In this document: positions 3,495 through 54,296 of the stretch, in pieces
Layout of the letters: each line of letters begins with the position of its first letter
Numbering within the stretch: position 1 is the stretch's first letter
DNA from: a virus
Length of the DNA stretch: 64,000 nucleotides
IMG/VR virus record: IMGVR_UViG_3300031992_000044
Direction: 5' to 3' (one strand)
Notes under the pieces: model-generated
What the model was told of the DNA's origin: nothing
Databases searched by the model: none
What the model saw: the letters and a program-made list of their open reading frames with translations, nothing else
Translations under genes and position numbers: made by a program

Positions 3495-3543
3495 TTTGAT
3501 AACAGTTTAGAGGGTTTGACATATTTTTGGGAAAATACATTTG

Positions 3544-3614
3544 TTGGGTCACACGGATTCGAACCATGACTAAGGGAACCAAAATCCCTTGTGCCGCCAT
3601 TACACCATAACCCA
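3544..3614 (-). tRNA. tRNA-Gln (anticodon UUG)
   Basis: Hand fold: TGGGTTA/TGACCCA acceptor (U1-A72), D arm GTGT-AATGGCG-GCAC, anticodon arm AGGGA-TTTTGGT-TCCCT, T arm CATGG-TTCGAAT-CCGTG. Confidence 0.85.
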
Positions 3615-12045: not shown

Positions 12046-13911
12046 TTATTGTATAAGTTTTATGGATTTTTCTTTAAGTAGTGTATTGACATCTTTGTTA
12101 TCTTTCTTTATCTTATAACCTTTTATCTTTACACCTTTTTCATAAATTTCCATAATACTATACTCAGCATCGGCATACCTTCGTTCTGACTGACCGTTGC
12201 TATTTATATATCGTGGCTTAGACAATGATGGAAGTGCTACTGTATATCCGGATGTAGACTTCTCATTATTATCTGCTCTTGTGTATACATATGCGTTTTG
12301 TGCATATGGACTGACTATATTATAGTCATGATTGACAAAATGTCCATCGTTTTCCCAACTTATATGAGAATGTCCACTGAAGAATATAACATTCTTATAT
12401 TTGTTGTTGAGTTTATTTAAGAACCAGAATTCAATACCAGTTAAGGCGTTTGAACCTATACTATAAAGTTTTGATTCTTTTATATCTTTTTCTCCAGCTT
12501 TATGTATATCTGCATATTGCCATGCTCCTTGTTGAGGTATTCCTAAACTATTACCTGCTTTATTCGGCAAGAAATGATGAGTAAATACATAGATCTTCTT
12601 ATCTGGATTATTTTCAATTATTTCTTTTAACCAAATAAGACTGTTTGGACTATAATACTGGTAATTATACTACATATCACCGTTACCATAATCGGTATCT
12701 TGTACGTATTCAACCATTCTCTTGATATATGGATCGTTTGATTTGGTATCGATAATTGTTCTTGCATGAATCATACGATCATGCCACTTATCATTGATAG
12801 GCCAAATATCATTACCATAATCTACAGAAAGGAATACAAAGATATCATCATCTTTCTTAAGCCAATAGTTAAGTTTAGAATAACCATTTCTTCCGTGACT
12901 ACCACCGTCATTCCACATAATGAGATTATCTTTTACCTCATTCCAGTGGCTATTTACGTAGTTGTTTGCACAACGGATAGCTTCATCTGATATACCTCCT
13001 TTATTTGCATCCCATATCGAACTTCCTGTATATCCTCCTTTTCTTGCATATAAATCAACATGGTCGTTATATGAGAAGAAGTTCATGTCAGCTTGACCAA
13101 CAGGAGTAGATTTGCCTTTTTCTAAATCAAATACTATGCGTCCTCTACCAGGTACAATACCATTGATACCTTGACCAGTAGGCCATAAATTTGCAATTCT
13201 CTGGTTTACATTGGCATTATATCCTGAAATACATTCGGAATTCTTTTTACCAGTTCTTACATCACCTTGTCTAGATTCAAATAGTCCATAGAAATCATGA
13301 TTACCAAGTGGTGAGAACAACCTAAGACCTGCTACTTGCCAATAAGGAACATCATACATTTCTTTTAATTCCTTATAATCAATATCACATACTGCTTCTG
13401 GATGTCTTTGATAAGCATTTGTAGCCGATTCTGAAATATCTCCACAACTCATTACACATTTTATGTTCTGATCTTTAACAAACAGATCCATACAACGTTT
13501 GAAGTCTGCTTCATCCCACCAATCATCATTGTCTTTTGAGATATGAAGATCTGATATCAGACCTACAGAATATTTATAATTTCCAAGGTCTACATCTTCA
13601 TCTCCTTTCTCATCATCTTTTATGATTGTAACAGGACACCACAATTGAGCAATGTCGTTTGTCATTCCTAAATCAGGTCTTCCATTATCTCCTATGGAGA
13701 ATATGAAATGTGTAGTATCGTCGTGAATAATTGCATTATATGTATATTCTTTACTATTTTGCTAATCGTGTATCCTTGTATATCCGATTTTCTCTCGTCT
13801 TTCATGAATACATGAATAACATTCAGTAGCAAACTAGGCATGCAATGCAACTGTTTCTCCAACTCGACCTTTTATTTCTGGTCCAATTAATTTTATTTCT
13901 TCTTTGTTCAT
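12046..13911 (-). CDS. Calcineurin-like metallophosphoesterase with an N-terminal extension; 3 in-frame TAG (621 aa)
   Basis: Track ORFs 12046..12570 and 12670..13665 are in one frame, joined by TAG at 12670-12672. Motifs are split across them: ISDLHI, CGDIS and GNHDF upstream; VFTHHF and GHSHISW downstream. The frame stays open to the ATG at 13911 through TAGs at 13834-13836 and 13762-13764. Confidence 0.75.
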
Positions 13912-13912
13912 A

Positions 13913-15163
13913 TCAATTCGATAATAAATCTGTTTGATTCTCTGCTAATATAATATACCTTGCACCACTCTTATCTGGATCAAGACTTGCATATGGATTT
14001 TTCCAATATAGATTCAGATGATATGTATAACCTCTCTAAAGTTTTACGTTTTGTGTAGGAGCAGCTGCATACATATTCTGAGACCCACTGATTGCAGTTT
14101 TTGATCTTGAATATTCCCTTGTATAAAGAAATATTGGATAACCATATGCATTATTGATAGAATTCATTAAATACCAAGTGCCATCAGTAAAATCAGTAGT
14201 AGGCATATATATACCAGTAATCGTTGTTATTTCTGGTGAGGTATAAGATCCGCCAACTGGTATAATTATATTATTTTTGTGATAATCCCCATTTTGATCA
14301 GGTATACCTATATTGGCATCAACTATATTAGCGTACGCTTGTGTTGAATTTGTCCAATCGTTTTGATTTCTTGATAAATTTAAAGTTACTCTTCCTGAAA
14401 GTCTTGCTTCAGAACCAGTATTATTTGTTATGACAAATTTAATTCCATTGCCTCCTGTATATTCAGCTGTACTGTATACTGTAGTTTCAGGTGCATGATC
14501 ATCTCCAGATGGTGTAGGAGTTGGATCAGGATCTGTGTCATATGTAGGTGTTTGTCCTCCACCCATCCACTCTGTAGTATTATTTGGTATTGTTACAGTA
14601 AATGATCCTCCATCTTGAAATATATAACTTTCACTTACTCCAGATGTTGTGAAAGTATAATTGCTTCCATTTATTTTATATCCACAATTACATAAATAAG
14701 ATGTTTCAGAATACTGTTCTCCTGATGCAAAATGTAATCCTTCGTATTCTCTTTCAAATATTACAGTACATTGTGCAGATAAACCTTGTTCTATTCTATT
14801 ATTTGTTGTTACTGTTCCTGTCACAGATTGTATTTGCTGATTATCCTCATCCCACAATAATAACTGCAATTGGCGGATGTTTAATCTACCACCAGCATTA
14901 TTCACAATCATTGCTGTCATAGTTATACCGTCTTCTGGTGTAGGAGTTGGTGTTGGTTCTGGATCGTCAGGAATAATAGGATCTGGTGTAGGTGGTATAA
15001 ATGAATCTATATTACCTATCTGTATTACAAGCCCTTCTTCTGGAATTTCCTCAGTATCAGTACCGCTAGCGTGTATTATCTACACCTAATCGCTGGTTAT
15101 CTTCAGAATACTTGGCTGATCGATAACGTCATCTTTATTTGTAAAATCGTATTTGTTTAACAT
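13913..15163 (-). CDS. Hypothetical fibre/carbohydrate-binding-like protein, 3 in-frame TAG (416 aa)
   Basis: Track ORF 14036..14920 extends upstream in frame to the ATG at 15163 through TAG-GTG-TAG (15080-15088). Downstream it reads through TAG 14036-14038 to TGA 13913-13915, which sits 1 nt before the next gene's ATG. Contains a Pro/Thr linker PDPTPTPS. Confidence 0.65.
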
Positions 15164-15189: not shown

Positions 15190-15259
15190 AGCGAGTGTGG
15201 GACTCGAACCCACCAGTTTACAGATTTACTGAAACTTACCGACTGCGAACAGACTCGCT
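15190..15259 (-). tRNA. tRNA-like gene with a non-canonical central region (possible pseudogene)
   Basis: Perfect acceptor AGCGAGT/ACTCGCT and T arm GTGGG-TTCGAGT-CCCAC. No standard D stem. The anticodon region folds as AGTTT-(12-nt loop CAGTAAATCTGT)-AAACT. Confidence 0.4.
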
Positions 15260-16044
15260 CCACCCACTTAGGTAGGGTTCACCGACTTCACGCTGCCTCC
15301 TTGAGACCCGTGTAGTCAACGATATTATAATCGCCGTTTAAATTTATATCAAAGCGTTTAATGTCTTACTTTCCACTGCTGTCAAATCCAGTCAGGCCCA
15401 TAATGCCCACATACGGCCTACGAGTGGGCTGCGCAGATAGTCACCCCTTATTCGCTCTATGTGACAGATAAAACTTGGGACTTGCCGTGGACCTGGAGGG
15501 ATTCGAACCCTCGTCCAACAGCTCATTCTGGGACACGCTAAGATTCTTGTGTAGAACGTTCTGATGATCGGTCAAAACATTCAATTTAAGGCTATTTTCA
15601 GGCTCTCTGAGACGTTTTCTAGGCTTTTGTGGGTAGCTATTCCACTCAAGCTTTAAAATGGCTTAGAAAGGCTTATTTTAGCCTTAAATAAAGGTTGAAT
15701 ACGTTGGTCTACCACTGGCTCGAAGGCTCACAATAGGGCGTATTCGCATTCTTGAAACTGTTTTACAGCAAAAGCTGACTCTATGGTTCAGTAAAACTCA
15801 TAGTTCTTGATCTAATGCCCACATATTATTACACCGTGTGGACGGTGGTATCACCCCGTGGCACTGGCTCAAAGGCTCGGACCTAGATTGCGAGTGTCGC
15901 TCCCTGTCGGACTGAATATAGTTAATATAAAGGCGAACTTCAGAAACTATATTATTACCGATCTTCTATAACGTATTCTGCTTTCTTTTTATAGAGTATT
16001 GGCTCAAAGGCTCGGACTCTACGGATGATGGGTGCTCTCAGAGA
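15260..16044. ncRNA. ORF-free structured block with internal repeats; candidate noncoding RNA(s)
   Basis: No ORF of 60 aa or more. TAATGCCCACATA occurs twice (15401-15413, 15813-15825), each followed 20-26 nt later by TCACCCC. TGGCTC(A/G)AAGGCTC occurs at 15716, 15865 and 16000, and also at 5789. Hairpin AAGGCT..AGCCTT is present. Confidence 0.35.
15489..15512 (-). other. Isolated tRNA T-arm-like module
   Basis: Minus-sense GAGGG-TTCGAAT-CCCTC followed by CAGGTCC-A. No matching GGACCTG 5' strand was found in 15521-16040. Confidence 0.3.
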
Positions 16045-18419: not shown

Positions 18420-18536
18420 ATGTAATGAACACTTTCATTTAAATAACTTAAATAAACATTAAAAGTACTATGAAAATAAACCTTTAACACATTATTAATT
18501 TATCAATTAAGAAATGTCACACGCTTCACAGCGTTG

Positions 18537-18611
18537 TGTGGGAGAATGGATTCCAACCACTACCTACAGATGCAGAATCTGTCGCTCTGATGGTTATTAA
18601 GCTACTCCCAC
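18537..18611 (-). tRNA. tRNA-Gln (anticodon CUG) with atypical D and T loops
   Basis: Acceptor GTGGGAG/CTCCCAC, D arm GCTT-AATAACCATCA-GAGC, anticodon arm ACAGA-TTCTGCA-TCTGT, T arm AGTGG-TTGGAAT-CCATT. The D loop has CC where GG is expected. The T loop has G at the C56 position. Position 37 is C. Confidence 0.7.
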
Positions 18612-27191: not shown

Positions 27192-27719
27192 TTAATAAGT
27201 CTATTCCGTTGTGCTTTCTCCATTAGCGCTAAGGCTTTCAAGAAGTTTTCGTCTTCTAAGGCTTGTTTCAAAGTGTTTGACGTACCGTGTGCACGGTGTT
27301 TGTTGGGGGTCTCCATTTTCATTGAATGTTATGTGAGAATAAAATTGTTCTTTTTTCCATTTGTTATAGGCATTATATGCCTGTTTTCGTTCATACTTGT
27401 TACTAAATCTATGAATACACTTTAACATAGCCTCAGCGTCAACACTACCACATGCTTTTATACTACAAATATCGTCTATAAAGCTCATAGCAGCATCTTC
27501 GTCATACTTTTCTTGTATTGTCTAATATTCTGCCATAGCCTATGCTATATACTAGTTATCAGGGTCATATTCTGGCTCTAAATCAAGTATATACGCACTA
27601 TTTATAGGGGCTCCATGGATAAAGAAATACTTGCAATTATCTGTAACTGGGTGATTTTCATGCTTCATACTTAGAAAATCAGCATAATACAGTATAGCAT
27701 TCAACTCTATATTTGTCAT
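27192..27719 (-). CDS. Panacea/DUF4065-like protein with 4 TAG sense codons (175 aa)
   Basis: The ATG at 27719 (ATGA overlap with the upstream stop) is in frame with track ORF 27201..27488, through TAGs at 27552, 27540 and 27522. The track stop 27201-27203 is also TAG, and TAA follows 2 codons later. The N-terminus MTNIELNAILYYADFLSMK...GAPINSAY resembles DUF4065 as I recall it. Confidence 0.6.
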
Positions 27720-28141
27720 TTATTAAGCCAGTTTTTAAGAATTAACGTGGTTATGTACGACTTCTCATAAGCAAAGTGTTCTTGGTTATCTAAGTCTATT
27801 TCAGCTCCAATTATCTTGTACAAATCTAGTATAGCATGACATGCTTCATGGTCTGCCAGGTTTATTATATCAAGCAACTTGTCTACTTTTACACTAGTGT
27901 CGGAAACATGTTTTACTAATATAAACTGCCTATTATCACTCTTACGTTTTACTGATACAGTAACTCCCTGATACGGATACCCATCGCTATCGTTGAGAAA
28001 ATTATCGTCTAATTCTACTCCATCGGAATACGTAAATATCTCCTGAAGCTCCTCGAATGTAGTATACTTGTTTGCTATTGCTAGATATACTTCATATGGA
28101 GTTTCGTAATAATCTATCCTGCTCTTATTGTTTTGTTTCAT
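27716..28141 (-). CDS. ImmA/IrrE-like zinc metallopeptidase candidate (141 aa)
   Basis: Contains the HExxH motif ADHEACHAILD. The ATG at 28141 (MKQNNKSRIDYY) is preferred over the track start. Confidence 0.55.
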   Translation of the reverse strand: MKQNNKSRIDYYETPYEVYLAIANKYTTFEELQEIFTYSDGVELDDNFLNDSDGYPYQGVTVSVKRKSDNRQFILVKHVSDTSVKVDKLLDIINLADHEACHAILDLYKIIGAEIDLDNQEHFAYEKSYITTLILKNWLNK

Positions 28142-28286
28142 ACGATTTAGTTTACTGGGGAAAGAGAAGAAAGTAGCAAAGAAGATAAAGGGCCAGTATA
28201 TATTATATAAATTTATATAGTTATAACAGTATAGAGCCCCTAATAACCCCCCTATAGTCCCCCCTTCTTCCCCCAAAGGTCACCTG

Positions 28287-28369
28287 CATAACGCATAAAA
28301 TGCCCAAAAAGTTGCAAAAATAAAAAATTTTTATCGTTTTGCAACCAACTTTAAAGAAATCTGCGTTAT
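28287..28369. promoter_or_regulatory. Nested inverted repeats in the divergent early/late intergenic region
   Basis: Outer repeat CATAACGCA (28287-28295) pairs with TGCGTTATG (28362-28370). Inner repeat GTTGCAAAA (28311-28319) pairs with TTTTGCAAC (28337-28345). TGCATAAC (28285-28292) also occurs in R1 and R2. Confidence 0.5.
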
Positions 28370-28402
28370 GGGGGCGTAATTTGATTAAATTGTTAAATTA
28401 AA

Positions 28403-28813
28403 ATGGCAAAAACATTACGTGTAATTTCTGATTTTTTGGACATGAATCCTGGTGATACGTTTGAATACGATAACGATACCAAGATGTATGTCGCAGAGCG
28501 AAACGAGGAATTTCATCGTACGGATGATTCTGATAGTGAACTCCGCTCGATTTATAGTTCTAAGTTCGCTATTTCTGAAGGATATGCCAGAGAGTTGATT
28601 CAGGACGGTATTCTTGAGGACGCCATTAACGATTCAAAAAGTTTCGTTAACGTATTCGACGAGATTGATAATCTTACTACCAGATATGAGAGTGAGCTTA
28701 AGAATCTCGATGAAGATATGGCTCAGTTCCCAGAGTGCATGAAGGTTGAGCGTACAACAGTACTTAACAATCTTCTTTCTGTACTTGATCACCTCAAAGG
28801 ACTTAAGAAGTAA
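28403..28813 (+). CDS. Hypothetical protein (136 aa)
   Basis: ORF-track ORF. First plus-strand gene. TAA stop. Confidence 0.75.
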   Translation: MAKTLRVISDFLDMNPGDTFEYDNDTKMYVAERNEEFHRTDDSDSELRSIYSSKFAISEGYARELIQDGILEDAINDSKSFVNVFDEIDNLTTRYESELKNLDEDMAQFPECMKVERTTVLNNLLSVLDHLKGLKK

Positions 28814-28816
28814 AAT

Positions 28817-29230
28817 ATGGGAGAAGAAGAAAAATTAATAGACCAATCGCCGCTTGCTGAGAGTGTAGCACAGAACATCAAATACGATTTTCTTGACTAT
28901 TTCCTGGTAAAGCCGCTGGATCCGGTCAAAGTGAAGAAAGAATTTACAAAACCGGTCGCAACTGGTACACCCGCAAAAGATGCAAATGGAGTTGAAGCAC
29001 AAGACTTTGACAACGTTGAGACCGAGGTTAAAGAAGTTGATTCTGATTATCGTAGAGGAATTGTATTGAAACGTCCTCTTTACTACAACGGAAGTGATGT
29101 TATTGGCACATCGCAAGAAATAAAAGTAGGCGATGTTGTTATATTTAGAGATCCTGCCGGACTTCGCTTTGACTTACTTAAAGATAGTCGTTTGCTTCGT
29201 TTATACGACATACTTGGTGTAGAAGCATGA
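28817..29230 (+). CDS. GroES/Gp31-like co-chaperonin candidate (137 aa)
   Basis: Cpn10-like pattern: FLVKPL ... long acidic mobile-loop-like insert ... RGIVL ... IKVGDVVIF ... LYDILGVEA. Confidence 0.5.
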   Translation: MGEEEKLIDQSPLAESVAQNIKYDFLDYFLVKPLDPVKVKKEFTKPVATGTPAKDANGVEAQDFDNVETEVKEVDSDYRRGIVLKRPLYYNGSDVIGTSQEIKVGDVVIFRDPAGLRFDLLKDSRLLRLYDILGVEA

Positions 29231-29442
29231 TCGACATCGATAAAGTAATTAGAGAAGTCGCCAAACGTTTAAATGTAGACAAAGATATAGTTGATACAGT
29301 GTGCAAACACGCGTTTAAAGAAACAGTAGAAACTATGAAGTCTGATGATGATTGTAGAGATATACTATTCAATCAATTATTTAAGTTTAAACTGAAGCGT
29401 AGATACAAAGAAGATAAAACATACAAATACAGTTCAAAATGA
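29227..29442 (+). CDS. Hypothetical protein (71 aa)
   Basis: ORF-track ORF with an ATGA overlap. Confidence 0.65.
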   Translation: MIDIDKVIREVAKRLNVDKDIVDTVCKHAFKETVETMKSDDDCRDILFNQLFKFKLKRRYKEDKTYKYSSK

Positions 29443-29903
29443 AGACTTTATATTTAACACAGAGCTCAGAGAACATCGTTGTTGATCCAGAGACTGACTT
29501 TGTTGGCAAGCTCAACAGTGAGGATCGTTATTCAATTCGCTCAGTATACTACATGGAAGAACCCATGCATATTGTATATCAGTGCGGTGAAGTGAAGGAA
29601 GAGCTTGATGCCCGTAAGGGCGACATTGTACTGGTGTTTTATAGCAATACTTATAACAAGTATACTATTGATACTATACGTACAAAACAGTGGGCTGCTA
29701 ATATCCGTAACGAGCACGCCATGCGTCAGAAGGAGAAGGAAGAGTGGGCTGCTAAGAAAGCTAGCTGTGATTGTGATACATGCTGTGAGACATGTTCATG
29801 TGGTGCAAATTTAGCAGAAATTCCTGTGGTTAACGCTGCTCCTGAAAAGGAGAACATTGCCAAAAAGATTAAGAAGGCGTTAAAGAAAGTAACTAAGAAA
29901 TGA
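29439..29903 (+). CDS. Hypothetical protein with a Cys cluster (154 aa)
   Basis: ORF-track ORF containing ASCDCDTCCETCSCG. Confidence 0.7.
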   Translation: MKTLYLTQSSENIVVDPETDFVGKLNSEDRYSIRSVYYMEEPMHIVYQCGEVKEELDARKGDIVLVFYSNTYNKYTIDTIRTKQWAANIRNEHAMRQKEKEEWAAKKASCDCDTCCETCSCGANLAEIPVVNAAPEKENIAKKIKKALKKVTKK

Positions 29904-30262
29904 TAATCATGAAGACAAAGAATACAAAAAATACTAAGAAAGTAACAAAGAAGCCTGACTTTGTAGTAGATTGGACAAACATTGAGACATATCTTGATGT
30001 TCCATATGAGACAGCTCAAGCAAAAGTACGTGCGGGTCTTCCTATTTCACAGGAAGAGGCTGACGTAATTGAGAAGATGGGCTTTATGACTGCTGCCGAT
30101 ATCGTCGATGCTTGTGTTGCTGAAGCAGATAAGCATACTACTGTTATCGAAGACGATGAGCTCGCTGAGAAAATGGTAAAGATGATTAAGAAGCATATTG
30201 CCAAGAAACAGCCTTGGTATAAGCGCTTCTGGCGTTGGATTACTTTCCGTAAGAATAAGTGA
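29900..30262 (+). CDS. Hypothetical protein (120 aa)
   Basis: ORF-track ORF with an ATGA overlap. Confidence 0.7.
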   Translation: MIIMKTKNTKNTKKVTKKPDFVVDWTNIETYLDVPYETAQAKVRAGLPISQEEADVIEKMGFMTAADIVDACVAEADKHTTVIEDDELAEKMVKMIKKHIAKKQPWYKRFWRWITFRKNK

Positions 30263-30566
30263 TATAAGTGGCGCTTTGTGAAGGCGAAAGCTGGAGAGCG
30301 TCCAATCACTAATATACAGGTTAAGACTAGTCATGTGCTCTCCTAATACATAAGGGATCGTAAACGAGCTGGGCGAAATCGGTAAGTAGGGGTCCTGTAA
30401 AAACCCCGAAGTCAATACAGGTTACAGGGTCCTGAAATTCCCTGTGAAGAGTTTGAACACATGTGAAAGATTTGAACGAATCAATCGAACTAAAAGAAAA
30501 ATAAGAGAGAAATAATGTGAGACTTACGTTTAGACCTTGCGAGAGAGCGTTACTCTCGGTAAGTCC

Positions 30567-30641
30567 TGCTCCATGGTGTAGCGGTAGCACGGGAGGCTCT
30601 AACCCTCCAGGTCCGGGTTCGACTCGATGGTGGGGCGACCA
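30567..30641 (+). tRNA. Amber suppressor tRNA (anticodon CUA), Gln-like, with encoded CCA
   Basis: Acceptor TGCTCCA/TGGGGCG (two G:U pairs), then A-CCA. D arm TG-GTGT-AGCGGTA-GCAC is identical in stem to the tRNA-Gln(UUG) of this window. Anticodon arm GGAGG-CTCTAAC-CCTCC. T loop TTCGACT is present, but I could not pair a clean 5-bp T stem by hand. Confidence 0.75.
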
Positions 30642-30663
30642 ATACACACTTTATATACACATT

Positions 30664-31218
30664 ATGACGATTAAATTTAAAAGACTTTCAGAAAATGCGA
30701 TCGCACCTGTAAAAGCACATAGCACAGATGCTGGATTTGATTTGACTTGCACTGACGTTACAACAGAGATTAACGAGAACGGTCAAGTTGTTATAGTATA
30801 TCACACAGGTCTGTCACTCGAAATACCAGAAGGATATTTTGGAGCACTTGTTTCAAGATCTTCTATTGCAAAGAAGCCATTGTTGCTGACAAATGCATTT
30901 GGCGTCGTTGACTCTGGTTTTCGTGGAGAAGTTATTGGTAAATTTAAAGTTACCACAGATTCTGTACCTAGTGTATATAAACCAGGTGAACGATTTGCGC
31001 AACTTTTGATCCTTCCTGTACCAGATGTACAGTTCGAGGAATCAGAAACACTTAGTGAAACAGATCGTGGCGAAGGCAGCTACGGATCTACAGATGAACA
31101 GACATCAAGCGCACCATCGGCTACTCAGAGTCTTCCGGAAACAGAAGGCGAGCCTATAAACTCTGAGCCCGCAACAGACGGCAGCGGCGACGCAGTAAAC
31201 AGCGTTGAGGAAGCATAA
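30664..31218 (+). CDS. dut: dUTP diphosphatase (dUTPase) with an acidic/Ser-rich C-terminal tail
   Basis: Motifs AGFDL, SRSS, GVVDSGFRGE, GERFAQL and RGEGSYGST. The track ORF start at 30517 overlaps the tRNA, so the ATG at 30664 is used. Confidence 0.9.
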   Translation: MTIKFKRLSENAIAPVKAHSTDAGFDLTCTDVTTEINENGQVVIVYHTGLSLEIPEGYFGALVSRSSIAKKPLLLTNAFGVVDSGFRGEVIGKFKVTTDSVPSVYKPGERFAQLLILPVPDVQFEESETLSETDRGEGSYGSTDEQTSSAPSATQSLPETEGEPINSEPATDGSGDAVNSVEEA

Positions 31219-31396
31219 TAATTACGTAATAAAAGCTTCATGGGGTGGCGTACATCGGATGGCAAAACCTCACGAGGTTGATTTAATCAACTGATACGGG
31301 CTACATTGGTAGTCAAGTTAATAGGGACTCTTTAGAGGGCCCCTATTGGCGTATATACATTATTCTCAAATTATTTCATTAATTCTCTTTATTTTT

Positions 31397-32278
31397 ATGG
31401 AAAACTCTAAAATTTTTATGTTCCCTGAGAACGGGACAAAGAGCTCTATCGATCCTACTCTGCTTGCTCTGATGAACAACAATGGTGGTTTCGGTGGTAA
31501 TAACTGGATATGGATTCTCTTCCTCTGGCTCATCTGGGGAGGTTATGGAATGAATGGTTTTGGCGGCATGGGAGGCTTCGGAGGTAATGGCTACTTCGCT
31601 AACCAGCTTGCTAATAGCGAAGGTAGAGATCTTCTGCTGCAGGCTATAAATGGTCGTGCAGATGCTCTCGGACAGCTTGCTAGTATTACTAATAGTAATG
31701 TAGAACAAGTATAGGCCGCTGTCAACACTTTGAATACCAGCATCCAGAATGTAGGCTCTCAGGTTGGTATGTCTAGCTTACAGGTAACCAACGCAATTCA
31801 GAGTGGTAATGCTTCTTTAAGCCACCAACTCTGTGAGTGTTGCTGCGAGAATCGTCTGCTGACAACTCAGCAAGGTTATGAGAATCGCATCTAGACCATT
31901 GAGCAGACCAATCAGCTTGGTTCTCAGGCCGACCGCAATACACGGTCAATAACAGACGCTATTGCGAATCTCCAGACCAACATGACCCGTGAGTTCTGTG
32001 ATATTCGTGAGCGTGAAATGCAAAGTAAGATTGACACACAGAGTGATATTATCACTCAACTGCGTGGTCAGCTGGATAATGATCGTCAGACAGCACAGCT
32101 GTTTAACGCTATTAATCCTCTGCAGGCTAAGGTTAATGAGATTGCTAACAAGCAGCCCAACACTGTGCCTGTTGTATGGCCTAACTTAACCGCAGTTAAC
32201 AACACTCCTTACGCAGCTGGAGCTTTATATGGCTTTGGTTGGAATAATGGTTGGGGTTCTAACAGCTTTTGGAATTGA
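31397..32278 (+). CDS. Hypothetical membrane/Gly-rich protein, 2 in-frame TAG (293 aa)
   Basis: Track ORFs 31346..31714 and 31982..32278 share frame 2. The gap is open except for TAG at 31712 and 31892. N-terminus has WIWILFLWLIWGGYGMNGFGGMGGFGG. Confidence 0.75.
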
Positions 32279-32297
32279 TTGAGAAAGGAGGTAGACT

Positions 32298-32654
32298 ATG
32301 TTTGGTACTACTAATTATCCTTTTAACTTTGCCAATCGCCGTGGTATACCTATGATTGAGAGCAGTGGCGTTACAGCTACAACGGAGAACGTTACTATTG
32401 CCCTCCCTAATAGAGTATTCAGATGGCTTAATGACAAAGGGGTAATCCTTTTTAGGCTTTGCCAAGTAATTCCAGAAGCATCAGTAGATCTTCCTATAGT
32501 ATTTACATCTAATGATTTTACACAGCCTCTCACCCTTGCTGGTGGCGATCCTGCTACAGGTGCAAATGTTATAGGTCCTGGTGTATACCTGATCTACTAT
32601 GATAAAGATGCTAACTTAATGCAGCTCCTTACTATGGCTGCTAGTTCTAACTAA
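32298..32654 (+). CDS. Hypothetical protein (118 aa)
   Basis: ORF-track ORF, preceded by AAGGAGG 7 nt upstream. Confidence 0.75.
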   Translation: MFGTTNYPFNFANRRGIPMIESSGVTATTENVTIALPNRVFRWLNDKGVILFRLCQVIPEASVDLPIVFTSNDFTQPLTLAGGDPATGANVIGPGVYLIYYDKDANLMQLLTMAASSN

Positions 32655-44856: not shown

Positions 44857-46899
44857 ATGGTAGACTTTAATAAAAAGATTCTAAATAGTTCAAAGTTCCG
44901 CTAGCCAGCTATATTCTTTAAAGAGCATGGATGTTATACACTGGCTCCGCGTGGAACAACCGATTATATACAATATTGGGATAGAGAAACACAAAGGTGC
45001 ATAAACGGATATGTAGCACCTGATGGCGACGCTATTACAGGCTACCATTATTTTTACCTAAACTATAGTCCTATTATGAAGTTGGAGGAAACTAAGTATA
45101 CAGATAGGTACGGAAACGAACGTACCAGAAGAGAACGTGTACTTAATTTCCCCGACTTCTGGGATTATGATTATTACTACTTCAATGCGATAGAAGAAGC
45201 CGAAAACCAAGGGAAACACATGGCAACCCTTAAATGCAGACAGAGAGGTTATAGCTTTAAAGGGGCTAGTATGCTGGTGCGAAACTATGAACTCATCCCA
45301 GGATCAAAGAATTTCGCAGTAGCTTCTGAGTAGAAGTTTCTTATAGGAGATGGACTACTTACGAAAGCTTGGTAGATCATGGATTTCGTAGACAAGCACA
45401 CAGCATGGTCTAAACAACGTCTAACATCAACCCGTATGGAGCGTGTATCTGGTTACAAAGTCACAGATGAATTTGGTAAACAGACAGAACAAGGATATTT
45501 GAGCTCTATTACAGGTATTACACTAAAGAATGACCCAGAACGTCTTCGTGGTACTCGTGGTAAGCTTGTGCTATTTGAGGAGTGCGGTAAGTTCCCCAAC
45601 CTAGAAACAGCATGGCGTGTTGAACAACCTGCTGTAGAAACTGACGACGGTGTGGCATTCGGTTTGCTTTGTGCATTTGGTACAGGTGGTACTGAAGGAG
45701 GTAGCTTTGATGGTCTAAAGAATCTATTCTATAAACCAGATGCATTTAATGTATTATCTTTCGATAATATATGGGATGACGGATAGGAGAATACTAAATG
45801 TGGATTCTTTGTACCAGCGTGGAGTAATATGGGTCCTGAGTTCATGGATGAAGACGGTAATAGCGATAAAGATAGATCTATAGAAGAATTAATGGTATAG
45901 CGTAACAAAGTTAAAGATGGAGGCGCTACACAGACATCTATAGATAGGTTTATCTCAGAACGTCCTTTAAAGCCACAAGAGGCTGTCTTAGAGCTTGGAA
46001 GAAACATATTCCCTAGAAAGCTATTGATGGACCAGCTAACCCGTATCAGAACCAATAAGAAGCTTTAGAATATGAAACATATTGTAGATCTTCTATGGGA
46101 CGGTAAAGGTGGTGTTGAAGCAGTAGAAAAGAAATCTGGAGATATAACTACTTATCACTTAAAGAAAGATGACAAACCAAAAGGATCAGTAGTTATCTGG
46201 GAATACCCAATCACAGATCCCCCATTTGGATTATACATTGGCGGCTGCGACCCGTATGATCATGACGAGTCGTTCACTAACTCGTTAGGATCGACGTTTA
46301 TTTTTAAAAGAGTTAGAGCTGGAGAGGCTTGGAACGATGTAATAGTCGCAGAATATACTGGGCGACCAGATACTGCTGAAGAATATTACGAAAACGTGCG
46401 TAAACTATTGATATTCTATAATGCACGTCTGTTGTTTGAGAATGAACGTAAGGGTATCTACCCTTACTTCACAAACAAACACTGTGATTATCTTCTTGCA
46501 GATTAGCCAGATAAAATAATTACGGAAGTCTTTAAAGACAGTAGAGTACAGCGCCGCAAAGGCTGTCATATGACTAAATAGATTAGGGCGTATGGAGAAG
46601 GATTAATCCTCGAATGGCTTATGGAAGAGTATGAAGAAGGGCATCCTAATCTAGAAAGAATATACAGCGAACCTTTGATAGAAGAGTTAATAGAAAACGA
46701 CGGTGAGAAAAACGTAGACCGTGTTATTGCTATGTGTATGGTTATGATATATAGAGAAGAACTATATCAAGTTAAAGTGTCCGCTGCAAAAGAACAAAAC
46801 AAATAGGTTGAACTCTTCGAACTACCTTTATTCAGTTAGCGATACTGGGATGCTGATGAAGAGGTAGTGCAAGACAACATACCTGTATTTAACTTTTAA
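44857..46899 (+). CDS. terL: Terminase large subunit, 10 in-frame TAG (680 aa)
   Basis: Four track ORFs (45076, 45379, 46072, 46621), all in frame 1. Gaps checked: only TAG. Motifs CRQRGYSFKG (Walker A-like), KLVLFEECGKF (Walker B) and GGCDPYDHD (nuclease). Confidence 0.85.
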
Positions 46900-46902
46900 T
46901 AT

Positions 46903-49392
46903 ATGGTTAGAGTAGACGATAATTTATATAACGTATCATTTCCCCAATAGAAACTACCACTAAAAAAGAAAGACGAATAGTGGCAGCATGATTGTGTAAA
47001 CTGGATAATCGGCGAGGGGAACGTTGCGTCTGGAGGTATGAATAAGACGCGATTCGGAGAGATACAAACCTACTATAATCTTTATAATTCTATATTTGAT
47101 GAAAAAGACTTCAAGCGTATTACGAACCCATTTAAGGTAGAAGATGGGTTCCCCGCTACTCCTCAAGATTTCAATATAATTAGGCCTAAGGTAGACCTCC
47201 TTATAGGTGAAGAGACAAAGAGGCCAATGAACTTCAGGGTGGTGAGAACGTCGTAGGAAGCCGCTTCAGAGCTTATGGACAGAGAGAAGGAGATGCTCAT
47301 CCAATATATTATGGCATCTATTACTTCTCAGATGGGTCCTGAAGAAGCACAATAGTTTTAGCAATAGTTACAGTCTGGCGAGATAATGCCTCCTGAAGCT
47401 ATAGCTAAATATATGTAGAAAGATTATAAAGATGTTATAGAAAACACAGCATATCATACCCTCACATACTTACGAGAAAAACTAAACTTGGACAATGAGT
47501 TTATCAAAGGCTGGAAAGATGCTCTTATTGCAGGTACTGAATTCTATTATGTTGGTGTAATGAACGATGAGCCGTACATGGAGAGAGTGAACCCAGAATA
47601 CTTCGATTATGATCATAGTCCTGATCTAGAGTTTGTAGAAGATGGTTCGTGGTGCTGTCGTAGAATGAGGATGCCTGTGGCTGAGATATATGACCGTTAT
47701 TATAATAAGCTTAGCGAGAAAGACTTGAATAAGCTTAACGAGATGATGGGTAGCAGACACGCTAATGATCTTGGTGATAGACCTCCTGTAGATAACTTCG
47801 GTGGTGGTATACAATTCCATATCTATGATAATCCTACTATGGATTAGAAGACTAGATATGCTATAAATGTATGGCACTGCTGTTGGAAATCTTTCAAAAA
47901 GATATACTATGTTACATACTTCGATGAAGCCGGTCAGGCACAAGTAGAAATTATGGACGAGTCTTATAAGAAGACAGGACAGGAGATATCAGTTGAACCG
48001 GACTGGATTATAGAAGTTTGGGAAGGATACCGTGCAGGATCTGATCTTTATTTTGGTATTCAGCCTATTGAGTACCAGCATGTATCAATTGATAACCCTA
48101 ATTCTCAAAAGCTTCCGTATTGCGGATGTGTCTACTCTAATACCAACAGTAGGCCACGTTCTCTTGTAAGTATACTTAAGCCTCTACAGTATATGTATAT
48201 TGTATTGTGGTATAGACTTGAGTTAGCTATAGCCAGAGATAAGGGAAAGGTAGTAAACATGGATATTACATAGATTCCTAAATCTATGAATATCACTCCT
48301 GATAGATGGATGCACTACTTGTCTTCTGTAGGCGTAAACTTTATTAATCCTTATGAAGAAGGTTGGAACATCGCAGGTAGAGAAGGCGGAAAGCCTGCTA
48401 CGTTTAATTAGATCACTGCTCTCGATCTTACTATGTCGAACGTAATCGCTGAATATATTCAGCTGATGGATAAGATTGAGCAATTGGCTGGTACTATATC
48501 AGGTATTACAGAACAGCGTGAAGGCGCTATTAGTTCTAATGAACTTGTAGGTAATGTAGAACGTAGTGTTGTACAGTCTTCTCATATTACTGAGCCTTTG
48601 TTCTGGGCTCACAACCAATGTAAGCGTCATGTACTTAACATGTTGTTAAATACAGCTAAAGGGGCATGGTAGCAGACAGGTAAGAAGAAGCTTAGTTATA
48701 TCTTCGATAATGGAGAACGTGCTTTTGTTGATATCCAAGATAAATTCTACTATGAAGATATGGATGTGTTTGTAAGCGACACTTCTAAAGACATGGAAAA
48801 CATTTAGAAGTTGCAGCAACTTATTCAGCCGGCTATGCAGAATGGTGCTAGCTTGCTTGAAGCAGCTGAGGTACTTACCAACGATAACTTCAACATCATC
48901 AAGCAGAAGCTTCTAGAGATGCAGCAACGTCAAGAACAGCAAATGCAACAGCAACAAGAAGCTGAGCAACAACAAGCTATACAACTGCAACAAATGCAGA
49001 ATGAAGCTCGTGAACAAGAACTTATGCTTGAAGAGGCTAAGATGGAGCTTGAGCGTTACAAGATCGATGCTGACAATTAGACTAAGATTGCGGTTGCTGA
49101 GATATCTACTTATCGTGGTACTGAGGAGAAAGATATCAATCAGAACAATATCCCAGATCCGCAGGAAATGTACGATATTGCTATTCAGCAGTAGAAGCTG
49201 CAATCCGATGCTTATACGAAGCGTTACGAAGCAAATCAGAAGAAGAATATAGAAGACAAGAAGATTGAGCTCGAACGTGAGAAGATGAAGCACGAGATGG
49301 CACTACAGAAGCAGAAGGATGACGCGGCTCTTGAGCGTGAGAAGGTTAAAGGGCGCTACGCTCTTCGTAACAAAACATCGGGAGAGCGATGA
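46903..49392 (+). CDS. Portal protein, 14 in-frame TAG (829 aa)
   Basis: Five track ORFs, all in frame 1. Every gap was read and contains only TAG. It follows terL directly. Size and the Q/E-rich C-terminal tail are typical of large podophage portals. Confidence 0.75.
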
Positions 49393-52772: not shown

Positions 52773-54296
52773 ATGAATAATACTTTACTTAACAATCTCC
52801 AGCTGTACCGTGGACGTCGTTTCTCGGACCTGGTAGATGAAAACATGATTTCTAACGCCCTGCTGACTAGACCTCATGAGGTGTCTGGTCTGCTTTCACT
52901 GGTATTTGGTACAAAAGACGATGGTGTTTCTACTACTATCGATCTGCTCACCGGTGGTCTTGGCAAGACAATGATTATTGATAACCGCGAGTTTGAGTGG
53001 GCTGTCCAGGTTGACAGCGAGCACGCTATTAACATTCGTTGGGCAAAGTGGAACGGTAAGGAGATTACCTCCGCTAACTATATTTCTGAGACTCCTGGTC
53101 TGAATGGTACTCCTATCTACCTCGCTCTTGAAGAGCGTTGGTTCGGTCCTGGTGCAATTCTGTCATTTGACGATTACAAGTTCCAGGTTCGTGTAAACGG
53201 TGTTCCTTATCAGGACGGTAGCGCTTGGGTATATGAGGTATATGTTGTTGATGGAGCACAGGCTGCTTACATCCCCGGTGAGTTCCTGCTTCCTGGTCGT
53301 CAGGTAAGCCGTTTGGGTTCTGCTTACGAGGAGTACAGTGATGAGGCAGATATCATCAACTACCAGACTCCGTTTAAGATGCGTGGTCATCTGCAGACTC
53401 TCCGTCTGACTTATGATATTACTGGTGACGCATATTCAACGGTTCTGGCTATTGCTCTGCAGGATCCCGAGACTGGTAAGAAGAGCTATCTCTGGGCCGA
53501 TTATCAGTACTGGCTCGCACTCCGTGAGTGGAAGAAGCGTGAGGAGTATCAGCTGTTGTTCTCTAAGAGCAACCGTCTGGCTGATGGTACTTATCTTAAT
53601 AAAGGGACAAACGGCAGACCCGCACCTACGATGAGTGGTTTGTTCGAGCAGATTAGCCCGGCTAACATTCGTTACTATCATCACCTGACAGCTGAGCTGT
53701 TCGAGGATTATCTCTTCGACCTCTGCTACAATATCCTTGGTACCAATGAGCGTCGTTTCGTTGCTCTGACTGGTGAGATGGGTATTCGTGAGTTCGACCG
53801 TATCCTGAAGGAGAAGGTTGCTAGCTTCAATATGTGTGAGAATATCTTCGTTACCGGTAGCGGTCAGAACCTGACTCTCGGTGGTCAGTTCACTACCTAC
53901 AACATGACAAACGGTATCACGCTGTCTCTGAAGCGTTGTCCTTTGTTCGATAACATGGAGATGTTCCGTCAGCTCCATCCGCTGACTGGTAAACCCCTGA
54001 TGTCTTATACGTTCCTGTTCGTCAATATCAGCAACTTCGACGGTCAGGCTAACGTTGTTAAGGTTTGCCGCAAGGGTCGTGAGTTTGTTCAGTGGTACAC
54101 CGGCGGTTCTGTTTCGCCTCAGGGTTATGCAAACAGCATTAACACTCTGCGTTCTAACAGCCGTGATGGTTACCAGGTTCACTTCCTCGGTGAGGAGGGT
54201 ATTATGGTTCGTAACCCGCTGAACTGTGGTATTCTGTACTGCGACGCTGAAGATACCGAAATCTGCAACGACGGCGGTATTAATGTCGGTGCGTAA
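52773..54296 (+). CDS. Major capsid protein candidate (507 aa), no TAG
   Basis: Single uninterrupted ORF with strong GC3 and preferred-codon bias. It follows the scaffold-like gene and is followed by a GC hairpin. Confidence 0.7.
   Translation: MNNTLLNNLQLYRGRRFSDLVDENMISNALLTRPHEVSGLLSLVFGTKDDGVSTTIDLLTGGLGKTMIIDNREFEWAVQVDSEHAINIRWAKWNGKEITSANYISETPGLNGTPIYLALEERWFGPGAILSFDDYKFQVRVNGVPYQDGSAWVYEVYVVDGAQAAYIPGEFLLPGRQVSRLGSAYEEYSDEADIINYQTPFKMRGHLQTLRLTYDITGDAYSTVLAIALQDPETGKKSYLWADYQYWLALREWKKREEYQLLFSKSNRLADGTYLNKGTNGRPAPTMSGLFEQISPANIRYYHHLTAELFEDYLFDLCYNILGTNERRFVALTGEMGIREFDRILKEKVASFNMCENIFVTGSGQNLTLGGQFTTYNMTNGITLSLKRCPLFDNMEMFRQLHPLTGKPLMSYTFLFVNISNFDGQANVVKVCRKGREFVQWYTGGSVSPQGYANSINTLRSNSRDGYQVHFLGEEGIMVRNPLNCGILYCDAEDTEICNDGGINVGA

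Follow-up and report, generated by a model that had tools for sequence, protein, structure and literature searches.

A probable glutamine-type amber suppressor tRNA with an irregular T arm, next to the TAG-rich late genes of a crAss-like phage

The DNA analyzed here, 64,000 nucleotides of IMG/VR virus record IMGVR_UViG_3300031992_000044 (hereafter the window), carries a putative transfer RNA (tRNA) gene with the anticodon CUA at 30567–30641 on the plus strand, close to a long block of late genes in which TAG occurs in frame. The locus raises three questions: whether this tRNA(CUA) is a working amber suppressor despite a T arm that does not fold in the usual way, which amino acid it would insert, and whether its place among the genes has a meaning. 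An earlier note, made from the letters alone, had proposed a suppressor derived from a glutamine (Gln) tRNA, placed exactly at the boundary between unrecoded and recoded late genes. On comparative sequence grounds, the locus is very probably a functional phage amber suppressor tRNA derived from a Bacteroidales-type tRNA-Gln. That a phage suppressor switches TAG to Gln for late genes is already established, and the syntenic gene is annotated in close RefSeq relatives. The conserved irregular T stem seems to be undescribed so far.

ARAGORN, which the earlier note had proposed as a check, called a tRNA with anticodon CTA at exactly 30567–30641 (75 nt, anticodon at position 33), one of six RNA genes in its output for the whole window. 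The Rfam tRNA model (RF00005) matched 30571–30630 with 31.7 bits (E = 0.011 for the whole window, 8.8e−5 for the 500-nt region 30200–30700), which is 2.7 bits above the gathering score of 29. At a permissive E-value, Rfam found just the tRNA and a spurious long non-coding RNA match in 30200–30700. From 5′ to 3′ the gene consists of the acceptor strand UGCUCCA (30567–30573), UG, the D arm GUGU-AGCGGUA-GCAC (30576–30590), a single G, the anticodon arm GGAGG-CUCUAAC-CCUCC (30592–30608), the 4-nt variable region AGGU, the T arm CCGGG-UUCGACU-CGAUGG (30613–30630), the second acceptor strand UGGGGCG (30631–30637), the discriminator A (30638) and a CCA encoded in the genome (30639–30641). The anticodon CUA (30599–30601), which reads UAG, is flanked by U33 and A37. 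The D loop contains GG and the T loop UUCGA. The clean GGAGG/CCTCC anticodon stem, the 7-bp acceptor, the A-CCA end and the initial U described in the earlier note all hold in the sequence; two of the seven acceptor pairs are G.U, among them the weak first pair, U1.G72.

The minimum free energy fold of this single sequence contains no cloverleaf and is no better than that of shuffles (z = 0.59), so the structure had to be taken from comparative data. When IMG/VR was searched with nothing but the anticodon arm, 27 loci were found; about 19 are the same 75-nt tRNA with the odd T arm, and six have canonical T arms. Searches that fixed both the anticodon and the T-arm pattern returned 55 viral and 85 metagenomic loci. 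Altogether, 30 distinct sequences of the odd-T-arm tRNA were collected from about 135 public phage loci. Part of the T-arm conservation in their alignment stems from the pattern that was searched for. No T-arm form was prescribed in the anticodon-arm search or in a search with D arm plus anticodon, and of the 111 Gln-type CUA tRNAs that this last search found in IMG/VR about half show the odd form.

In tRNA(CUA) the T stem is made of the pairs C47-G64, C48-G63, G49.U62 and G51-C59, and the T loop is normal with a closing G-C pair. G50 faces a purine, and one of G60 and A61 (30626–30627) is an extra nucleotide on the 3′ strand. The earlier note had found a T loop without a normal 5-bp T stem and suspected its own fold. 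The irregularity is real, as none of the 30 sequences forms five T-stem pairs: all have four standard pairs, a purine-purine mismatch, an extra 3′-strand nucleotide and a loop UUCGAYU.

For pair counting we used a cloverleaf with C47-G64, C48-G63, G49.U62, G50 opposite R61, G60 unpaired and G51-C59. Standard pairs fill 95.1% of the cells of the alignment (99.5% in the acceptor; 99.5–100% across the acceptor, D and anticodon stems), and 11 of the 21 pairs change on both sides. Ten of these two-sided changes lie in the acceptor (6/7 pairs) and the anticodon stem (4/5); the T stem contributes pair 48-63 alone, from C-G to U-A. Pairing and covariation as high as observed were reached by 0 of 500 shuffles, and pairing dropped to 40–61% when the partners were slid. 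The G50/R61 position never forms a standard pair, G60 is invariant, and column 61 is A or G. The T loop, U8, A14, G18, G19, U33 and the anticodon are likewise invariant, as are the bases C-U-C-U-A-A of the anticodon loop. Pair 7-65 covaries, being A-U in 20 sequences and G-C in 10. Covariation at 7-65 and 48-63 thus assigns seven pairs to the acceptor and places 47-64, 48-63 and 49-62 in the T stem. The same two positions rule out an 8/4 fold with U8.G64 as an eighth acceptor pair, and also a local alternative from Infernal in which CCA pairs with UGG around a 5-nt T loop. A second flavor occurs at two loci from the search with D arm plus anticodon (L205 and L210), where GCCCG-UUCGAGU-CG-A-GGC gives five pairs and a bulged A. 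One extra nucleotide on the 3′ strand is the feature common to both flavors, as the sequences suggest.

A T arm of this kind could also belong to a decaying, non-functional pseudogene, with suppression supplied by a host factor or by a phage tRNA encoded beyond the window. The stem has four of five pairs and an extra base, and several further points weigh against a functional gene. The margin over the Rfam gathering score is slim, at 31.7 bits against 51.6–56.7 for canonical sister suppressors (cr53_1 and the second tRNA of L003, which comes from a 174-kb IMG/VR contig); the single-sequence fold is not significant; about 36 kb of the genome beyond the window could hold another suppressor; and in two contigs the odd tRNA stands in tandem with a CUA tRNA of canonical form (L003, 7260–7410; L008, 370–520). 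However, neither ARAGORN nor Rfam found a second CUA tRNA in the window. Moreover, 30 distinct sequences share the irregular form; their acceptor, anticodon and T stems have undergone compensatory changes, and their key residues are invariant. The form is found in two lineages that share only 52% identity in TerL, and in each case TAG-rich late genes lie next to it. The gene order is five small genes, tRNA and dut in phages of the window's type, and dut, tRNA and TerL in the second, cr53_1-like lineage. At all 30 loci with a near-full TerL, the TerL gene beside the odd tRNA holds 6–17 in-frame TAGs, with neither TGA nor TAA in its frame. That the irregular tRNA persists, with compensatory change, where amber suppression is needed to make terminase and portal argues strongly, at the level of sequence, that it works, and a pseudogene is very improbable. 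The low score itself reflects the T arm. Odd-form tRNAs score 29.1–36 bits as a group, and the Rfam model penalizes the irregularity by about 20 bits.

The irregularity appears to be tolerated, perhaps selected. The T-stem pairs 49-65, 50-64 and 51-63 are contact and tuning sites of elongation factor EF-Tu. Since these contacts sit in the T stem, and natural tRNAs with T-stem bulges function, tuning by the irregularity is plausible by analogy. It may adjust the affinity for EF-Tu or the ribosome in competition with release factor 1 (RF1), or it may allow escape from a host factor that targets tRNAs. That the irregular stem is adaptive, and sets these amber suppressors apart as a natural class with a structure of its own, we nonetheless consider unlikely. 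Bacteria and phages have natural tRNAs, some of them suppressors, in which the T stem is bulged or the acceptor/T branch is 8/4 or 9/3, and these are known to work in translation (Mukai et al., 2017; PMC5389517). Those tRNAs have acceptors of 8–9 bp and a bulge, A51a, on the 5′ strand, whereas tRNA(CUA) has a 7-bp acceptor and an extra base on the 3′ strand combined with a purine-purine mismatch. It does not belong to the 8/4 or 9/3 "allo-tRNA" class, as covariation at 7-65 and 48-63 fixes the 7-bp acceptor. A blastn search found the irregular T-arm variant in no annotated record of the phage collection.

We next consider the amino acid. The segment UG-GUGU...GCAC of tRNA(CUA) is identical to that of the phage's own tRNA-Gln(UUG) at 3543–3614 on the minus strand, which was called by ARAGORN and Rfam and has the same D stem, U1-A72 and A73. 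Isotype assignment by plain identity to about 35 phage tRNAs did not discriminate (best Leu and Met, 0.67–0.74; own Gln(UUG), 0.62), and it was therefore replaced by a census of the D-arm motif in cellular genomes. The motif UGGUGUARNGGUAGCACR was scanned in 185,579 species genomes with the anticodon unconstrained, and it occurs at at least 120 loci. Among the matches listed, 105 of 115 cellular tRNAs called by ARAGORN are tRNA-Gln (54 UUG, 51 CUG), and 98 of these 105 begin with U1; the remainder of the 115 are Gly (5), Trp (2), Ala (1), His (1) and selenocysteine (1). In tRNA(CUA), likewise, a U1 in a weak pair with position 72 goes together with the D arm UGGUGUA..GGUAGCAC. Within the odd-T-arm family U1 is invariant (U.G in 23 sequences, U-A in 6), as is the D arm GUGU-AGCGGUA-GCAC.

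Bacteroidales tRNA-Gln have U1-A72, A73 and acceptors such as UGUCCUA/UAGGACA, which they have in common with members of the suppressor family. A73 together with acceptors like UGUCCUA/UAGGAC(A/G) matches tRNA-Gln of Prevotella, Bacteroides and Bacteroidaceae, members of the likely host group. The sequence comparisons thus support the Gln origin of the body proposed in the earlier note. The cellular tRNAs compared, both in the D-arm census and among Bacteroidales tRNA-Gln, have canonical T stems throughout. The anticodon loop CUCUAAC differs from the UUUUGGU and UUCUGGU loops of Bacteroidales tRNA-Gln at positions 32, 36, 37 and 38, and thus points to an evolved suppressor and not to a one-step anticodon mutant. 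In Escherichia coli, supE (glnV44) is a tRNA-Gln in which the anticodon is CUA; glutaminyl-tRNA synthetase (GlnRS) charges it, and it inserts Gln at UAG. tRNA(CUA) resembles it in combining a Gln body with CUA. It differs from its own presumed parent type, however, at more than the anticodon: in the loop CUCUAAC, in U1.G72 instead of U1-A72, and in the irregular T stem. The identity elements of E. coli GlnRS include G73 and G3-C70. Both are absent from tRNA(CUA), which speaks against charging with Gln, yet A73 is the base found in Bacteroidales tRNA-Gln.

The tRNA might be functional and still be charged by another route, through a synthetase for Trp, Tyr, Lys or pyrrolysine (Pyl), or as Glu-tRNA amidated by GatCAB. 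ARAGORN labels the gene tRNA-Pyl, blastn finds 82% identity over positions 10–59 to a tRNA-Trp of a Streptomyces phage, and a preprint from 2026 proposes, for a relative with recoding, a route through an amidotransferase. The tRNA-Pyl label merely reflects the anticodon. tRNA-Pyl is marked by a 3-nt variable loop, a 6-bp anticodon stem, a short D loop and the lack of T-psi-C and GG motifs. tRNA(CUA) lacks these hallmarks, as it has a 4-nt variable region, a 5-bp anticodon stem, and both GG and UUCGA. Its body is of the tRNA-Gln type, and no synthetase, amidotransferase or release factor was found among the 20 window proteins scanned against Pfam and PHROG. Amidation, moreover, would yield Gln anyway, and Gln dominates the homologue columns and codons at TAG, as described below. 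Charging by a route other than host GlnRS would therefore surprise us greatly.

The evidence from the codons required relatives of the phage. Megablast of 12 kb around the locus gave no match among annotated phages, and identification therefore relied on protein-level searches. The major capsid protein (MCP) shares 83% identity with its counterpart in crAss-like phage cr272_1 and 77–82% with those of other Oafivirinae. From MCP identity, the PHROG assignments of TerL and MCP, and synteny, the window is a Crassvirales phage of Oafivirinae type; the subfamily is placed in Suoliviridae in RefSeq and in Darmviridae in the current NCBI taxonomy. When TAG is taken to encode an amino acid, the rightward sequence from 31397 onward resolves into long open reading frames (ORFs), all of which end in TAA or TGA. 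This structural and packaging block (31397–63372, plus strand), delimited by ORF reading and PHROG matches, comprises 25 ORFs with 72 in-frame TAGs. It includes TerL (44857–46899, PHROG 6681) with 10 TAGs, the portal gene (46903–49392) with 14, and the MCP gene (52773–54296, PHROG 11589) with none, all on the plus strand. The MCP gene is TAG-free in three relatives as well (L067, L069 and L070), despite TAG-rich neighbors, perhaps because suppression is avoided in the gene with the highest expression.

With TerL translated with X at each TAG and aligned to 117 close homologues, Gln is the majority residue in eight of the ten TAG columns, against a Gln background of 4%. Some database proteins might themselves be code-15 translations, so the comparison was repeated at the codon level against three RefSeq genomes, cr272_1 (NC_055903.1), cr124_1 (NC_055899.1) and cr130_1 (NC_055901.1). 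Opposite the TAGs of the window these genomes have CAA 33 times, CAG 14 times (47 Gln codons in all) and TAG 24 times, with AAA next at 6. Conversely, opposite the TAGs of the relatives the residue in the window is Gln in 22 cases, followed by Glu in 6. The columns on which the earlier note had staked its reading are thus dominated by Gln, and its proposal that TAG in the late genes is read as Gln is supported by the alignments. Read-through of UAG by tRNA(CUA) is predicted from the 72 in-frame TAGs in conserved late genes. About eight leftward ORFs, by comparison, are in the standard code and end in TAG.

Recoding is not confined to the rightward block. In a leftward gene at 27192–27719 (minus strand), three TAGs are internal and a fourth lies close to the end; the gene aligns over its full length, at 43–54% identity, to homologues in cr272_1, cr124_1 and cr130_1 that bear in-frame TAGs of their own. 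It also gives a weak Pfam match to SocA/Panacea (E = 0.004). Elsewhere on the minus strand, a metallophosphoesterase-like ORF (12670–13665) ends in TAG and its frame continues into a second ORF (12046–12570); the pair could be a read-through fusion or two separate genes, and no homologue of it was found in the three relatives.

The position of tRNA(CUA) is described most simply from its neighbors. Five packed rightward ORFs precede it (28403–30262, plus strand; starts at 28403, 28817, 29227, 29439 and 29900), the first of them a DUF7399 gene, and they are syntenic in cr272_1, cr124_1 and cr130_1. The dUTPase gene dut (30664–31218, plus strand; PHROG 135, E = 1.7e−45) follows 22 nt 3′ of the tRNA. 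As the earlier note had stated, the five ORFs and dut contain no TAG, and the first rightward gene with TAG after dut is 31397–32278, with two. Together the five ORFs and dut have 802 codons with 0 TAG, where 5.6 would be expected at the late-gene rate (Poisson P = 0.004). In the three relatives a CUA tRNA, annotated as "tRNA-Gln", lies after 4–7 small rightward genes, one of which is annotated as a chaperonin, and upstream of dut; in cr130_1 one ORF lies between the tRNA and dut. These tRNAs share with tRNA(CUA) the position, the anticodon, U1, the Gln-type D arm and the TAG-rich late genes. Their T arms are canonical with 5 bp (e.g., CUGGG-UUCGAAU-CCUAG), unlike that of the window.

If placement is meaningful, the sequence of events might be as follows. 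The tRNA would be transcribed near the head of the rightward unit, after five ORFs and before dut, none of which need suppression. Host enzymes would process it, its CCA being already encoded in the gene, and host GlnRS would charge it with Gln. The charged tRNA would then compete with RF1 at UAG, and the at least 72 in-frame TAGs of the late genes (TerL, portal, tail and others) would be read as Gln, while earlier leftward genes would still stop at TAG.

A serious though less probable account is that tRNA(CUA) is a working Gln suppressor whose position has no regulatory meaning, reflecting inherited synteny, constitutive or early expression of the tRNA, and small upstream genes poor in Gln. 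Much of the evidence that weighs against a regulated boundary fits this account. The upstream genes have just 19 Gln codons, so that at an 18% share of TAG the chance of seeing none is about 0.02. Eight of the 25 late genes are TAG-free, and the leftward gene 27192–27719 is recoded. The boundary leaks in relatives, with TAGs in two genes upstream of the tRNA and in dut in cr124_1, and in one upstream gene in cr130_1. In the other lineage the tRNA comes after dut, directly before TerL. A promoter and terminator scan of 27600–32400 returned fewer sites than shuffled sequence; a Bacteroidetes-like AAGATTTG at −100 is common to the nearest relative only, and we claim no promoter. On the other hand, the tRNA fronts a TAG-rich block in both lineages, genes are TAG-poor before it and TAG-rich after it in four genomes, and standard-code "code-change" genes upstream of recoded genes recur in other phages (10.1101/2021.08.26.457843). 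What remains of the exact boundary of the earlier note is that it is true in this window, with dut intervening: the tRNA heads a TAG-rich block in all these phages, and the exact boundary is a trait of this genome and not of the family.

Suppressor tRNAs of crAss-like phages have been described before (Yutin et al., 2021; PMC7886860), as have code-15 late genes, in which TAG encodes Gln, and a "code-change module" (Borges et al., 10.1101/2021.08.26.457843; Peters et al., 2022, PMC9523058). Like code-15 gut phages, the window combines a standard-code host with a suppressor that lies among genes written in that code, with recoding of structural and packaging genes, and with TAG as Gln. It departs from the code-change model in that its scanned proteins include no release factor or synthetase and that one leftward gene is recoded. 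What it adds is an example, from phages dependent on amber suppression, of a natural suppressor that is widely conserved and has a T stem of non-standard form. Such tRNAs sit at the edge of detection (29–36 bits against a threshold of 29), which bears on recoded phages reported "without a suppressor tRNA". Borges et al. (10.1101/2021.08.26.457843) merely predicted that non-canonical suppressors escape detection, and a 2026 preprint describes an amber-recoded Darmviridae phage with no CUA suppressor and two low-scoring tRNA "pseudogenes". If the irregular tRNAs do form a distinct class, their low scores could explain part of the "missing suppressor" problem, in which only about 40% of TAG-recoded genomes have a detected suppressor. 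Whether or not they form such a class, these tRNAs offer a natural set of sequences with which to probe the tolerance of EF-Tu and the ribosome for a distorted T stem, which is useful in suppressor-tRNA engineering.

Upstream of the tRNA, and ending 1 nt before it, is a tRNA-like minihelix (30521–30565, plus strand) made of a 7-bp outer stem (GACTTAC/GTAAGTC), a 12-nt linker and a T-arm-like hairpin (CGAGAG-AGCGTTA-CTCTCG). Its stems are fully compensated in relatives (L010, L018, L007, L015, L016 and L009), with GCCTATG/CATAGGC and either CGGGG/CCCCG or GGAGG/CCTCC, and the loops of L016 (UUCGAAU) and L009 (UUCGCGA) resemble T loops. Another hairpin, also conserved, is found at 30424–30445. 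Neither element was recognized by Rfam or by ARAGORN, which was also run in mitochondrial mode on the upstream minihelices. The minihelix may be a degenerate tRNA retained within the same precursor, or a co-transcribed processing or timing element.

Several other RNA genes were noticed. The window encodes phage tRNAs for all three codons read as Gln, namely UUG (3543–3614, minus strand), CUG (18536–18611, minus strand) and CUA; the body of the CUG tRNA is not of the Gln type (G1-C72, an 11-nt D loop, T loop UUGGAAU). CUA tRNAs that combine a Gln-type D arm with a long variable arm occur in L192, L194, L195, L201, L208, L219, L233 and others, on contigs of about 90–195 kb and some short fragments. 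In four contigs (L004, 5521–5594; L014, 705–777; L019, 5945–6019; L027, 1913–1985) ARAGORN lists, between a canonical CUA suppressor and a tRNA-Met, a tRNA-like gene for which it gives no definite "anticodon" but two or four bases (aa or taaa). L003 carries a Hatchet ribozyme (81.8 bits) at 13016–13099 and a transfer-messenger RNA (tmRNA) at 13597–14158. The window, too, has a permuted tmRNA at 15197–15577 on the minus strand (ARAGORN tag peptide GDYNIVDYTGLKEAA*; Rfam RF04321, 49.4 bits against a threshold of 47); the annotations of cr272_1 and cr124_1 likewise have a tmRNA at this place.

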